Positions 23,683 to 64,000 of a stretch of DNA of 64,000 nt are shown piece by piece. Position numbers and translations under genes: made by a program. Under the pieces are notes generated by a model. The model saw only the letters and a list, made by a program, of their open reading frames with translations. It was not told where the DNA came from and ran no database searches. Positions within the stretch are counted from its first letter, which is position 1; every line of letters begins with the position of its first letter. The stretch is from Thermoplasmata archaeon (GTDB lineage: Archaea > Thermoplasmatota > Thermoplasmata > RBG-16-68-12 > JAFNFQ01): assembly GCA_041489255.1 (NCBI GenBank), contig JBGPQV010000002.1:96001-160000 (forward strand), read 5' to 3'.

Positions 23683-24777
23683 ATGAAATCGATTATCGAA
23701 GACACGCTTTCTAGAGATGCTTCTGTCGTGCAGCCGGAGGACTCGAGGGTCGATCACGAGCTGGAGGACCTCCTCGCGAAGATGAGGACGAACATCAAGA
23801 TCATCGGGGTCGGCGGTGGCGGGAGCAACACCATCGCGCGAATCACCGAGGAGGGGATAGTCGGCGCGGAGCTCATAGCCGCGAACACCGACGCACAGCA
23901 CCTCTTCGCGATCAGGGTCCCGAGGAAGATACTCCTGGGCCGCAGGACGACTAAGGGCCTGGGTGCGGGCGCCCTTCCCCAGATAGGCGAGGAGGCTGCG
24001 AGAGAGGCGGAGGACGAACTCAAGGCGGCACTCCAGGGGGCCGACATGGTCTTCGTGACGTGCGGCCTCGGCGGGGGGACCGGCACGGGCAGCAGCGGCT
24101 ACATCTCGAAGATGGCGCGAGACCTGGGGGCGCTGACGATTGGCGTGGTAACGATGCCCTTCAAGGGAGAAGGCAGGCTCCGCATGGAGAGCGCTGAGTG
24201 GGGGCTGGAGCGCCTCAGGAACTCCGCGGACACCGTCATCACGATCCCGAACGACAGACTTCTCGATTTGGTGCCGCGCATGCCCCTCAATGCTGCATTC
24301 AGGTTCGCGGACGAGGTGCTGATGAGGTCGATCAAGGGCCTCACCGAGGTCATCACGAAGCCCGGCCTTGTCAACCTCGACTTCAACGACATCAAGACGA
24401 TCATGAAGGGAGCCGGAGTGGCGATGATAGGCCTGGGAGAGAGCGAGGCGATGGGGGAGGAGAGGGCGATAGAGGCGATCGACGAGGCGATCAACTCGCC
24501 CCTGCTCGATGTGGACATCAGCCAGGCAAACGGAGTCCTGGTGAACGTGATCGGCGGGAACGACATGACCGTGACGGAGGCCGAGCGCGTCGCCGAGGTG
24601 GTCCAGACGAAGGTCAGCCCGAACGCCAGGATAATCTGGGGCGCGACCGTCGATCCGACGCTGGAGCACAAGCTGCGCGTGATGCTGGTCGCCACGGGGG
24701 TCAAGAGCAAGCAGATCACGGGCCGCAGGGACATCCCGCCGACCTCGCAAAGGATGGGCATGGACGTCGTGAGATAG
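23683..24777 (+). CDS. ftsZ: Cell division protein FtsZ (copy 1)
   Basis: [28 protein letters not shown] motifs. Confidence 0.97.
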   Translation: MKSIIEDTLSRDASVVQPEDSRVDHELEDLLAKMRTNIKIIGVGGGGSNTIARITEEGIVGAELIAANTDAQHLFAIRVPRKILLGRRTTKGLGAGALPQIGEEAAREAEDELKAALQGADMVFVTCGLGGGTGTGSSGYISKMARDLGALTIGVVTMPFKGEGRLRMESAEWGLERLRNSADTVITIPNDRLLDLVPRMPLNAAFRFADEVLMRSIKGLTEVITKPGLVNLDFNDIKTIMKGAGVAMIGLGESEAMGEERAIEAIDEAINSPLLDVDISQANGVLVNVIGGNDMTVTEAERVAEVVQTKVSPNARIIWGATVDPTLEHKLRVMLVATGVKSKQITGRRDIPPTSQRMGMDVVR

Positions 24778-24841
24778 GAGTCTGGCCGTTCTGGGGCAGC
24801 CTCATCAGGCCAGCGCAGCCACTCAGGGCAGCAACCATTCC

Positions 24842-60220: not shown

Positions 60221-60814
60221 ATGAAGAGCATTGACGCCCTCGTGAAGAAGGCGATGGATTACAAAAAGAAAGGCCTGAAGGAGGACGAGATAGCAGACGA
60301 GCTGCACCTCTCGAAGGACACGATCATCTGGCTGCTGACCCGCGGCCTGAAGGGCGGCGAGCCGCCTAAGGACGTCAAGATCGGCTGGCGCTCCATCGGT
60401 GTCATGGGCAACAGGATAGCGGCGATGGCTTCCTCCATGACCGACATCATCCTCGAGGAGACGGAGAAGAGCGGCAACGAGCCGCAGTGCGTCGCCGGCA
60501 TTGCGATCAACGGCATACCTTATGCCACATGCATATCCGAGGAGCTGGGGGGCGAGCTGGCGATATACAGGCCCCCGAGCGAGAGAGGGAAGGCGGGCGG
60601 TCATTTCTCCAGCAACTACGCCGCGGTTCAAAATAAAAAAGTGATCTTCGTTGATGACGTCGTGAGCACCGGTGAAACGATGAAGGGCGCGATAGCGGAC
60701 GCGCGAGCTTCCGGCGGCACTCCGATCCTCGCGGTCGTCTTGGTGAACAAGACGGGACAGGACGAACTGGACGGCGTCCCCCTGCGGGCACTCATCCGCG
60801 CCAGGTCAATCTAG
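60221..60814 (+). CDS. gfcR: Orotate phosphoribosyltransferase-like protein with N-terminal HTH (GfcR family)
   Basis: EIADELHLSKDTIIWLL HTH; FSSNYA; VDDVVSTG PRPP motif. Confidence 0.85.
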   Translation: MKSIDALVKKAMDYKKKGLKEDEIADELHLSKDTIIWLLTRGLKGGEPPKDVKIGWRSIGVMGNRIAAMASSMTDIILEETEKSGNEPQCVAGIAINGIPYATCISEELGGELAIYRPPSERGKAGGHFSSNYAAVQNKKVIFVDDVVSTGETMKGAIADARASGGTPILAVVLVNKTGQDELDGVPLRALIRARSI

Positions 60815-62424
60815 TGGTGCAGATGCACTGGTTCGACGAGCTCCTCGGGAATGCGGAGGAGTTCCTTCACGGGCGCGAGAGGGTCCTCTGCAACGCGGGC
60901 TTGAGCGTCTCCGGTCTGCAGCATGTAGGCCGTCTAAGAGGGGAAATCGCGCTCAACCACGCGATAGTCAGAGCATTGAGATTGAAAGGAAAGAAGGCCT
61001 CTCAGAACCTTGTACTATACACGCAGGACCAATGGAAAGGCAAGGAGGGACAGCTGGGCAGGTTCAAGGCCGGGGAAGGGGAGCAGTACATCGGTCGGAG
61101 GCTGATGGATGTCCCGGATCCGGAAGGCTGCCACAGGAACTGGGTGGAGCACTACTGGGTCGATTTCGGGGACCACCTGGACAGGTTCGCCCCCGGGATA
61201 AGCGTGATCAGCACGACGGAGGTCTACTCCCGCCAGGATATGAAGGACCTCGTCATCGAGCTCGTGAGCAAGAAGGAGGCCGTGCGGGAGGTGGTGAACA
61301 AGTACCGCAGCAGGAGACCCTACCCGTCGGACTGGATTCCATTTGAGGCTTATTGCGAGAAGTGCCAGCGCGTCGGCAGCGCGAAGACGCTGGAGCTCCT
61401 TCCCGATCACCGGGTGCGCTACGAGTGTGAGTGCGGCAACTCCGGGATCTCCCCCATCGAGAGGGGGAAGCTGAACTGGCGACTCGAATGGCCGGCCCTG
61501 TGGAAGGTCCTGAAGGTCGATGTCGAGCCTTTCGGGAAGGACCACGCCGCGCCTGGCGGGTCGAGGGACAGCTGCAAGGAAATCGCGCAGAAAATCATGG
61601 GGATGGAGGCGCCATTCCCGATCCCCTACGAGTGGGTCGGGCTGGGGCGGGGAGGGAAGGATCTCGGGGACATGGGCTCCTCCGACTTCATCGGTTTCAC
61701 TCCGAAACAATGGCTGGAAATCGGCGACCCGGAGGTCATCCGCTACATCTATTTCTTCAACCCGGTCTCGAGGCGGGTGGTCCTCGACTTGAGCAAGGTG
61801 GACTCATATCACGACCTCTACGATTCCGCCGAGAGGGCACATCATTCCGCGAAGAAGAATGAGGAAGAGGAGGTCGCGGCTCGGAGCTTCGAACTCGCGC
61901 TCGTCGAGAAGACGATGGAGGAGATGCCGTTCCAGCTCTCATACCGCCACGCGGCATACCTTTCGCAGATCTCACCGGCTGAGCACAAGGTGAGCTGGTG
62001 CATCCAGCGACTGAGGGACACCGGCATGCTCTCCCTGCCTCTCACGCCGTTCGAGGAGGGCAGGATAGAGAGAAGGCTGACGCACGCTATGAAATGGGTG
62101 GAGCTCTACTCCCCCGAGAACAAGGTCATGCTCCTTCAGGAAGTGACTCCGAAAGTAATCGAACAGCTCGACGAGAAAGACAGGGAAGCTCTCTCGATGT
62201 ATCTCGGAGCGGCGGTAAAGACTGAATGGCGGGAGGATGCAATCAAAGAGTCCATGGTTGCGCTCACAACGAGCGGGAAATTGCCGGTCGAGACTCCTCG
62301 CTTCTTCAGAGATCTGTATCTCGTGCTCCTCGGACAGGAAAGAGGCCCGCGCGCAGCGCCTTTCCTCGCGGTGCTGAAGAAGGAATGGGTCCTGGAGAGG
62401 CTGAAGGAGACGGCAAAGGCCTAG
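60814..62424 (+). CDS. lysS: Lysine--tRNA ligase, class I
   Basis: SGLQHVGRLRGE, GKLNWRLEWP, EPFGKDH, MGSS, GPRAAPFL. Confidence 0.95.
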   Translation: MVQMHWFDELLGNAEEFLHGRERVLCNAGLSVSGLQHVGRLRGEIALNHAIVRALRLKGKKASQNLVLYTQDQWKGKEGQLGRFKAGEGEQYIGRRLMDVPDPEGCHRNWVEHYWVDFGDHLDRFAPGISVISTTEVYSRQDMKDLVIELVSKKEAVREVVNKYRSRRPYPSDWIPFEAYCEKCQRVGSAKTLELLPDHRVRYECECGNSGISPIERGKLNWRLEWPALWKVLKVDVEPFGKDHAAPGGSRDSCKEIAQKIMGMEAPFPIPYEWVGLGRGGKDLGDMGSSDFIGFTPKQWLEIGDPEVIRYIYFFNPVSRRVVLDLSKVDSYHDLYDSAERAHHSAKKNEEEEVAARSFELALVEKTMEEMPFQLSYRHAAYLSQISPAEHKVSWCIQRLRDTGMLSLPLTPFEEGRIERRLTHAMKWVELYSPENKVMLLQEVTPKVIEQLDEKDREALSMYLGAAVKTEWREDAIKESMVALTTSGKLPVETPRFFRDLYLVLLGQERGPRAAPFLAVLKKEWVLERLKETAKA

Positions 62425-62443
62425 AACGCCGCGGTGGGTTTTG

Positions 62444-62516
62444 CGCCCTCCGACCTGCAAGCCAAGCCTTCGAGGTTCTGGGCCTCGCGACCGCAGTTCG
62501 AATCTGCTTGGGGCCA
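62444..62516 (+). pseudogene. Degenerate tRNA-Gln(CTG)
   Basis: Perfect anticodon arm CGAGG-TTCTGGG-CCTCG and GCAG-TTCGAAT-CTGC T arm, but acceptor 1:72 and 7:66 mismatches, a 49:65 mismatch and a D arm lacking U8 and the GG motif. Confidence 0.75.
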
Positions 62517-62635
62517 TACGTCTCCTCCGTCATGTTTTCAAGATCCCGCCCATGGTCGAGGTTGCCCTCCGAAGGGATGCCTCAGGAGGGAAATGCTTAA
62601 GGCAAGTGTAACACATGTACTACTTGAGTGAGGAA

Positions 62636-62866
62636 ATGGACACGACAATCCGCGAACTCGACGACGACCTCTACCGGCAGGCAAAGGCCAAGGCGGCCCT
62701 CATGGGTATCTCCATCGGACGCGCTATGAACGAGGCCATGCGGAAGTGGATCTCAGAAGGCAGCGAAGCCAAGAAGGGGAGCATCCTCGATCTGAAACCG
62801 GCGAGATTCGGGAAGGGAAGCGAGCATCTCAGCGAAGAAATCGACAAGGTCCTGTATGGGGAGTAA
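62636..62866 (+). CDS. Antitoxin (RHH-like, VapB-type)
   Basis: TTIRELDDDLYRQAKAKAA...SEEIDKVLYGE; precedes a PIN gene. Confidence 0.82.
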   Translation: MDTTIRELDDDLYRQAKAKAALMGISIGRAMNEAMRKWISEGSEAKKGSILDLKPARFGKGSEHLSEEIDKVLYGE

Positions 62867-62868
62867 GG

Positions 62869-63273
62869 ATGCTGCTGCTTGACACCAGCGTGATAGTCGC
62901 CTTCAGGAATGCCGATGACGTGAACCACGAGAGGAGCATGCGGGTGTTCGAGGACCTGGCGAACGGCAAATATGCGAACGGCCTCGTAAGCGAATTTGTG
63001 TTTCTTGAGACGGTGACAGTGCTGAAGAGGAAGTGTGGAGCGACGATCGCGGTTGAGACCGGCGAGGCACTTCTCGACTCGAAGGAGATCAAAGTCCTCC
63101 CATCTGGAGACTTATCCGATGCTTCCTGGAAGGAATTCGTGAACCTTTCGAAGACGAAGCTGAGCTTCGTCGATGCCTCCAATCTCGTTGCCATGCGGAT
63201 GTACGGGACCCGGGAGATAGCGACGTTCGACCAAGAGTACCGCAAAATCAAGGGGATAGAGGTCGTCGGATAG
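62869..63273 (+). CDS. vapC: PIN-domain toxin (VapC-type)
   Basis: LLDTSV, E, LSFVDA, IATFDQEY acidic catalytic set. Confidence 0.9.
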   Translation: MLLLDTSVIVAFRNADDVNHERSMRVFEDLANGKYANGLVSEFVFLETVTVLKRKCGATIAVETGEALLDSKEIKVLPSGDLSDASWKEFVNLSKTKLSFVDASNLVAMRMYGTREIATFDQEYRKIKGIEVVG

Positions 63274-63389
63274 ACCACGCGACCGTGTCCGGAGGGAGAA
63301 CGGCCTGCCACTCTCGGACCGTTTCTGGGCATCTACCTGCCAAGTCCCCGTCGAAAATGCTTATACGGAGACGCGGCTTGACGGAACGT

Positions 63390-63460
63390 AGCCCCGTGGT
63401 GTAATGGCAGCATAAGAGGCTCTGGACCTCTTGGCATCGGTTCGAATCCGGTCGGGGCTG
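63390..63460 (+). tRNA. tRNA-Gln(CTG), A1:U72, discriminator G73
   Basis: AGCCCCG/CGGGGCT acceptor, AGAGG-CTCTGGA-CCTCT anticodon arm, ATCGG-TTCGAAT-CCGGT T arm; TATA-like AAAATGCTTATA about 25 bp upstream. Confidence 0.95.
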
Positions 63461-63489
63461 CCTGTCCATCCGAGATTCGGTGAAGAAGA

Positions 63490-64000
<511 letters not shown>

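Follow-up and report, generated by a model that had tools for sequence, protein, structure and literature searches.

The window, a 64,000-nucleotide stretch of a Thermoplasmata genome (positions 96001–160000 of contig C2 of assembly G000; 2.74 Mb, 96.5% complete), ends in a run of features that starts with the gene for the class I lysyl-tRNA synthetase and leads, by way of a fragment of a tRNA gene and a toxin–antitoxin pair, to a working tRNA-Gln(CUG) and the 5' part of glnS. We compared the site across 41 genomes of one Thermoplasmata order (G000–G040, families f1–f7; G000 and its same-genus relative G001 make up f1). The lysS gene is present in all 41, and its position to the left of tRNA-Gln(CUG) is conserved in the order. 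In window coordinates, the features at the site are:

60814–62424, + strand: lysS, class I lysyl-tRNA synthetase (LysRS; Pfam PF01921, E 5.2e-85)
62430–62436, + strand: deletion junction, from pairwise alignments against G001 (93 nt missing)
62436–62460, + strand: right-half remnant (25 nt) of a D-loop intron, matched in alignment by the 3' half of the G001 intron (33 nt)
62461–62516, + strand: 3' exon of a native tRNA-Gln(CUG), 56 nt (52/56 identical to G001)
62615–62866, + strand: ribbon-helix-helix (RHH) antitoxin, vapB-like (Pfam PF22513, E 2.3e-4, below the curated cut-off; also in G001)
62869–63273, + strand: PIN-domain toxin, vapC-like (Pfam PF01850, E 1.9e-13; also in G001)
63390–63460, + strand: working tRNA-Gln(CUG) of the short-D-loop type, with G73 (Rfam, 59.7 bits; ARAGORN)
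63490–64000, + strand: 5' part of glnS, bacterial-type glutaminyl-tRNA synthetase (GlnRS; TIGR00440, 692 bits, over cut-off; Pfam PF00749)

The glnS gene extends past the end of the window; its product is 561 amino acids long in all, and is 63–69% identical to bacterial GlnRS. The vapBC-like pair (62615–63273) separates the tRNA fragment from the working tRNA in both G000 and G001; in the other families no such pair was seen here. Other neighbours comprise a phosphoribosyltransferase, parts of an ABC transporter, a MarR-like protein and a ferredoxin-like protein.

The stretch that first drew attention, 62444–62516, starts 20 bases past the lysS stop (62424). Reading the 3' exon (62461–62516) in its 5' to 3' direction, we see the rest of a D loop, the 3' strand of the D stem, the anticodon arm, the variable region, the T arm, the 3' acceptor strand and A73. 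The anticodon arm (62471–62487) has a 5-bp stem (CGAGG/CCTCG) and a 7-nt loop, with CTG at 62478–62480; the T arm (62492–62508) carries a canonical TTCGAAT loop on a stem of four pairs and one C·T mismatch; and 62509–62515 represents the would-be 3' acceptor strand, followed by an A at 62516 (A73). The 27 nt to the 5' side of the anticodon arm form no D arm, and a 5' strand for the acceptor stem is likewise missing from them: the anticodon and T arms of a tRNA are present in the remnant, the acceptor stem and D arm of a functional one are not, the 5' exon being absent. An earlier note on this DNA had described a perfect CUG anticodon arm, a near-intact T arm and A73, next to a ‘broken’ acceptor stem and D arm—a description confirmed both by our reading and by the lack of a match to the Rfam tRNA model. 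Acceptor stem and D arm are indeed absent as stems, but what stands in their place is not decayed stem sequence, rather the right half of an intron followed by the 3' D-stem strand.

The Rfam tRNA model (RF00005; gathering score 29 bits) gives no match to the remnant at E ≤ 10, whether within 1301 nt or within 111 nt of sequence. Standard ARAGORN makes no call here either, reporting just a tRNA-Cys and the tRNA-Gln(CUG), the latter at 63390–63462, in the whole window. In intron mode the same program does return a ‘tRNA-Gly(acc)’ with a 38-nt intron at 62388–62516; this is an artefact, in which D arm and variable arm are forced and which recognises only the T arm and the 3' strand of the acceptor, and we rejected it because the same mode gives many implausible long-intron calls elsewhere. 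Several G000 tRNAs, for example, are called with introns of 589–1941 nt (such as tRNA-Leu(cag) at C2:120133–120812, window 24133–24812); these, too, are probably artefacts. Other Rfam matches near the site at E ≤ 10 (THF, bxd_2 and others) lie at chance level, far below their gathering scores.

The make-up of the fragment becomes apparent from a comparison with G001, the same-genus relative, whose LysRS is 93% identical to that of G000. Downstream of its lysS, G001 has a full tRNA-Gln(CUG), scoring 34.1 bits with the Rfam model, above the gathering score, over model positions 1–71; the Rfam alignment places a 39-nt insertion in its D loop, and a single pair, A1·C72, is non-standard. By inspection, the insertion represents a 33-nt intron between G18 and G19, with a bulge-helix-bulge formed from a 4-bp central helix, two 3-nt flanking bulges and an inner hairpin; the minimum-energy fold of the gene reproduces the central helix, the 5' bulge (3 nt) and the intron hairpin. 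Bulge-helix-bulge introns outside the canonical position are known from tRNA genes of Archaea, and the G001 gene, with its 33-nt D-loop intron, is of this sort; G000 differs in that the motif is destroyed, with the 3' half alone remaining.

The sequence of G000 aligns to that of G001 on both sides of a 93-nt gap; lost within it are a promoter-like A/T box, the entire 5' exon and the left intron half. The box is found, at the same spacing to the tRNA start, in G001 and at all six aligned loci of genus g8 (family f4); it is absent from G000. In G001 we see two imperfect direct repeats of ~16 nt, into which the ends of the gap fall. The deletion probably occurred between these short repeats, an arrangement that suggests slippage or illegitimate recombination. 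Within the 3' exon, the two genomes differ at 4 of 56 positions (62465, 62492, 62508 and 62509): at the last three G000 departs from the state of all relatives, with the T stem and the first acceptor pair broken as a result, and at 62465 it is G001 that departs. The working tRNA-Gln genes of the two genomes are identical to each other throughout (71/71 for the glnS-linked CUG gene, 73/73 for the UUG gene). The remnant resembles tRNA pseudogenes and truncated tRNA remnants in general, in its homology to a working tRNA at an orthologous site (52/56 to G001, with intact f4 orthologs also 3' of lysS), in its disabling lesions (the 93-nt deletion and the three stem-breaking substitutions) and in the presence of a working gene of the same anticodon in the genome; it differs from them in that the lesion cuts through a D-loop intron, one half of which is preserved, and in that the loss can be tied to a change of aminoacylation pathway. 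Judged from the alignments, it is a truncated gene and not the product of decay by point mutation.

The truncated form is also present in contigs from all four of the other sediment runs compared (region 62000–63600), none of them with an insertion at the junction. These contigs differ from G000 at 0, at 4 and, for two of them, at 43–45 positions (over 650–830 nt); the latter two therefore come from diverged populations, which are 5–7% diverged, still carry the remnant, and show further acceptor-strand changes at 62510, 62515 and 62516. Both diverged populations (runs X6 and X8) carry a T rather than a C at 62515, so the A1·C72 state that G000 shares with G001 does not extend to every truncated copy. 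As a separate observation, the other sediment populations differ at 19–23 positions within the ~110 nt of 62259–62367, at the 3' end of lysS, far more densely than in the flanks; this may be a local divergence or recombination hot spot in the LysRS C-terminus.

Across the order, tRNA-Gln genes were found via a shared 5' motif (92 matches, with sequences read by eye; six non-tRNA matches and one tRNA cut by a contig end, G026 C51, were left out of the counts), and two kinds can be told apart. In the ‘native’ kind the D loop is 9 nt long and the T stem of the GGCAG type, and introns are frequent; in the ‘glnS-linked’ kind the D loop has 7 nt and the T stem is of the CCGG type. The latter kind is the immediate upstream neighbour of glnS, as seen in 18 of the 19 genomes that hold a match to glnS or a fragment of it (two rows of the typing corrected by eye). 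Its acceptor stem is archaeal, and it looks like a diverged archaeal tRNA-Gln, not a bacterial one. We also considered, and dropped, the co-transfer of a bacterial tRNA with glnS: the tRNA-Gln genes near bacterial glnS are unlike the glnS-linked archaeal type, and fall within the flanks of bacterial glnS at 5 of 77 loci, at one of them directly upstream.

The last 36 nt of the remnant match G001 at 33 of 36 positions and the native CUG genes of other families at 27–31; the corresponding figure for the glnS-linked type is 20–24 of 36. The matches being higher to the native than to the glnS-linked kind, the remnant is thus of the native kind. The order of genes differs by family as follows:

f4: lysS, native CUG (with a 37/38 intron; in some genomes also a D-loop intron)
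f3: lysS, glnS-linked CUG, glnS, native CUG with a D-loop intron; native UUG elsewhere
G022 and G033 (f7): as in f3, the native CUG without an intron
f2: lysS, glnS-linked CUG, glnS, UUG of the glnS-linked kind; no native kind
f1: lysS, native CUG, vapBC, glnS-linked CUG, glnS

An intact tRNA-Gln(CUG) lies directly 3' of lysS at 8 of the 9 f4 loci examined, its arm sequences the same as those of the remnant, as the earlier note had predicted for relatives lacking glnS; the remnant sits where f4 has its only tRNA-Gln(CUG). The orthologs in f3 and f4 carry D-loop and/or 37/38 introns. Every native CUG gene in genomes without glnS has the 37/38 intron together with C32, and every one in genomes with glnS lacks the intron and has T32, a split that holds even inside a single genus (g7). 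Recombination may thus have moved the glnS block about within the order, with a native-type copy on board; the remnant could go back either to the gene resident at this site or to a native-type one carried along with the block.

Two of these layouts merit a remark of their own. In f2 (G002, G008, G013, G018, G023 and G027; e.g. G002:C44:42353-44206), the CUG gene upstream of glnS and the UUG gene downstream, both of the short-D-loop type, are near-identical outside the anticodon region, and the glnS-linked tRNA seems to have been the source from which the two isoacceptors were rebuilt. In f3 (e.g. G003:C8:6210-8230), G005, G022 and G033, where GlnRS occurs together with GatE, glnS lies between two tRNA-Gln(CUG) genes that differ from each other; these may represent natural parallel pathways for one codon.

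GlnRS scores over the NCBIfam cut-off in 17 of the 41 genomes (f1 2/2, f2 6/6, f3 6/8, f5 1/1, f7 2/10, f4 0/10 and f6 0/4), the remaining two f3 genomes holding glnS fragments. Matches to GatE are seen in f3 (8/8), f4 (8/10), f5 (1/1), f6 (4/4) and f7 (10/10); none was found in f1 (0/2) or f2 (0/6). In G000, GlnRS is present and neither GatE nor GatD was found (for GatD, nothing above the cut-off), leaving GlnRS as the only route to Gln-tRNA; in f4, which is without GlnRS, the native CUG tRNA must serve the GatDE route. In a quick tree of LysRS, f1 clusters with f4 and f6, whereas f2 joins f3; the GatE losses in f1 and f2 therefore look independent. In a quick tree of GlnRS (SH-aLRT only), the Thermoplasmata sequences form one clade (SH-aLRT 100) among bacterial GlnRS, within which each family is monophyletic; the order of the families is not resolved by this tree, which would fit a single old acquisition followed by losses as well as spread within the order. 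From this single clade of monophyletic families we take glnS to be old in this order; the gene and its tRNA are, by the same reckoning, old and widespread, and they coexist with the native CUG tRNA in the GatE-keeping f3, f5 and two f7 genomes.

The set of tRNA genes varies with the set of enzymes. Genomes with GatE and no glnS (f4, f6 and most of f7) have the native type only; those with both (f3, f5, G022 and G033) keep a native-type CUG beside glnS in 10 of 11 cases. In f2 the native type is found in 0 of 6 genomes, and in f1 the G001 copy carries the A1·C72 mismatch and the G000 copy is truncated. A native tRNA-Gln(UUG) survives in f1. Both working f1 tRNA-Gln genes have G73 (window 63460; G000:C7:18591), A73 is found in every other tRNA-Gln gene read across the order, and the remnant keeps A73. 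In another Thermoplasmatales MAG, a tRNA-Gln(CUG) situated 2.4 kb from glnS (L139:17-90) likewise has G73.

We put at roughly four in five the probability that 62436–62516 is a dead, 5'-truncated native tRNA-Gln(CUG), rendered dispensable by a switch from GatDE to GlnRS. On this reading, a native tRNA-Gln(CUG) with a D-loop intron sat directly after lysS; as the alignments show, a deletion of 93 nt took its promoter-like box, 5' exon and left intron half, and three later substitutions broke the T stem and acceptor strand. The gene would have become dispensable through the reading of CAG by a second, glnS-linked, short-D-loop tRNA-Gln(CUG) some 0.9 kb downstream (its first base 874 nt past the remnant), and also through the loss of GatDE in f1; what is left would be the last trace of a switch from the indirect (ND-GluRS plus GatDE) to the direct (GlnRS) route to Gln-tRNA. 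Because GlnRS is the sole route in G000 and CAG is read by the glnS-linked tRNA, a native CUG gene would be redundant there; and because promoter and 5' exon are missing, the remnant is presumably silent and without function today. The C72 (A1·C72) shared by G000 and G001, the G73 of the working f1 genes and the A73 of the remnant fit a release from the constraint imposed by GatDE and an adaptation to GlnRS.

As to timing, the earlier note had proposed an ancestral, GatDE-pathway tRNA-Gln that turned into a pseudogene once glnS had arrived. The native identity of the gene stands, as does a GlnRS unaccompanied by GatD or GatE; its cause of death we would revise. Because glnS is old and coexists with the native CUG gene where GatE is kept, we tie the decay to the loss of GatDE and not to the arrival of glnS as such, a view supported by two lineages (f1 and f2) and by single-gene quick trees; these lineages represent the only two GatE-loss events, the kin within each not being independent. 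In counterpoint, the native UUG gene has been kept in f1; being of the native type is thus in itself no bar to use by this GlnRS. The full-length copy of G001 may also still work, in which event redundancy alone has not forced loss.

This last consideration leads to the alternative of a neutral loss, in which one of two redundant tRNA-Gln(CUG) genes disappeared without any link to the exchange of GatDE for GlnRS, and which thus differs from the reading just given only in cause. Chance can remove one of two genes of the same anticodon in any genome, and a deletion between short repeats needs no selection; a native-type tRNA-Gln(UUG) does still serve in f1. Consistent with such a loss, also, two GatE-keeping f3 genomes show mismatches in the acceptor stem of their native CUG genes, at position 71 or 72 (G009:C115:40572 and G024:C106:5234); taken on their own, these may reflect an early relaxation of constraint even with GatE kept. 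A neutral process does not account well, however, for the native type always being the copy lost or damaged in both GatE-less lineages (f1 and 6/6 f2), never the glnS-linked type, nor for its retention in all but one of the 11 genomes that have GatE as well as glnS. We consider it unlikely.

Split and permuted tRNA genes occur in some archaea, and a remnant that has a perfect anticodon arm and persists in populations 5–7% diverged might be taken for the 3' half, still at work, of a split tRNA joined in trans, or for a tRNA-like element at the 3' end of lysS mRNA that acts as a processing signal. A split gene calls for a 5' half, and, in keeping with the earlier note's suggestion, we looked for one, or for an intact copy elsewhere, in the 96.5% complete G000 assembly, finding neither: the 5'-end pattern common to the tRNA-Gln genes of the order matches only the two working genes, and BLAST of the segment missing relative to G001 gives only chance matches of 12–17 nt (E ≥ 0.22). 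The changes in the T stem and acceptor are, moreover, compensated by no partner; the folding energy of the remnant is no better than that of shuffled sequences (z +0.99); and the additional acceptor-strand changes of the diverged populations also count against this explanation, which we hold to be very improbable.

Partial tRNA copies also arise at the att sites of archaeal and bacterial mobile elements, and the remnant is like these in being a fragment from the 3' side of a tRNA that points the same way as an intact tRNA-Gln at a distance of 0.9 kb, a toxin–antitoxin pair lying in between, as might be left by the integration of a vapBC cassette into tRNA-Gln. Such repeats are near-identical, whereas the arms of the remnant differ from those of the intact tRNA-Gln(CUG), with no more than 72% identity between the two over 50 nt; the intact gene has the fragment on its upstream and not its downstream side; none of the neighbours tested is an integrase, the only genes between remnant and intact tRNA being those for the RHH and PIN proteins; G001, the sister genome, has vapBC plus the full-length gene at the site; and the remnant contains intron sequence. 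With no identical intact copy in evidence either, the earlier note's judgement that this is not a simple att duplication holds good, and a scar of integration is highly improbable. That the resemblance to a tRNA arises by chance, as the lack of a match to any tRNA model might suggest, we regard as next to impossible, given that 52/56 positions agree with a validated tRNA in the orthologous place in G001 and up to 31/36 with orthologs in other families.

Returning to the truncated native gene as the reading we favour, it may be asked how far the two kinds of tRNA-Gln belong to separate systems. A possible, and to our minds still doubtful, extension would have two pathways running in parallel in this order, GlnRS with the short-D-loop CUG tRNA and ND-GluRS/GatDE with the native CUG tRNA, the tRNAs being largely private to their pathway. 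Within this tentative scheme, f3, f5 and part of f7 would be caught with both systems; f2 would have completed the switch with both isoacceptors rebuilt from the new type; and f1 would have completed it with its native UUG tRNA retuned to G73 and its native CUG gene left to die. If this is true, the remnant would be a dated marker of the switch from the indirect to the direct route in Archaea, where the reviews cited below have it not taking place, and would bear out the idea of tRNA-Gln identity as a barrier to it.

The players at this locus—a bacterial-type GlnRS, GatDE, A73 against G73, A1:U72 and features of the D loop—are those around which the question of direct and indirect Gln-tRNA formation has been framed. 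Passages of PMC9499178 describe GatDE as reading the D loop and A1:U72 of tRNA-Gln, contrast the A73 of archaeal with the G73 of bacterial tRNA-Gln, and cite the proposal (Tumbula et al. 2000) that peculiar features of archaeal tRNA-Gln kept GlnRS out of Archaea. All known archaea are said, in the reviews PMC9499178 and PMC3439900, to lack GlnRS, for the reason that archaeal tRNA-Gln is incompatible with it; here, by contrast, 17 of 41 genomes have one, and two families are without a detected GatE. The literature searched (subscription journals lay outside its coverage) yielded no description of this system, only passing mentions in gene lists for other archaea: a preprint (10.1101/2024.07.04.601786) mentions a GlnRS gene beside cox genes in Heimdallarchaeia, and PMC13140500 has an entry ‘GlnRS’, with a KEGG number, for Pyrodictiaceae.

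Taken alone, the remnant is just a small tRNA pseudogene, and truncated tRNA genes are nothing out of the ordinary; it matters for what it is evidence of. What is unusual is an archaeon in which GatDE has been exchanged for a bacterial-type GlnRS and the set of tRNA-Gln genes reshaped. Together with its intact orthologs in G001 and in GatDE-using relatives, the remnant points to a lineage that has replaced the universal archaeal ND-GluRS plus GatDE route by GlnRS. The locus offers natural substrates with which to test the idea of incompatibility, namely the GlnRS-linked type, natives with A73, a native retuned to G73 and an abandoned native gene; and synthetase/tRNA pairs that are naturally separate for one amino acid are of interest to genetic-code engineering.
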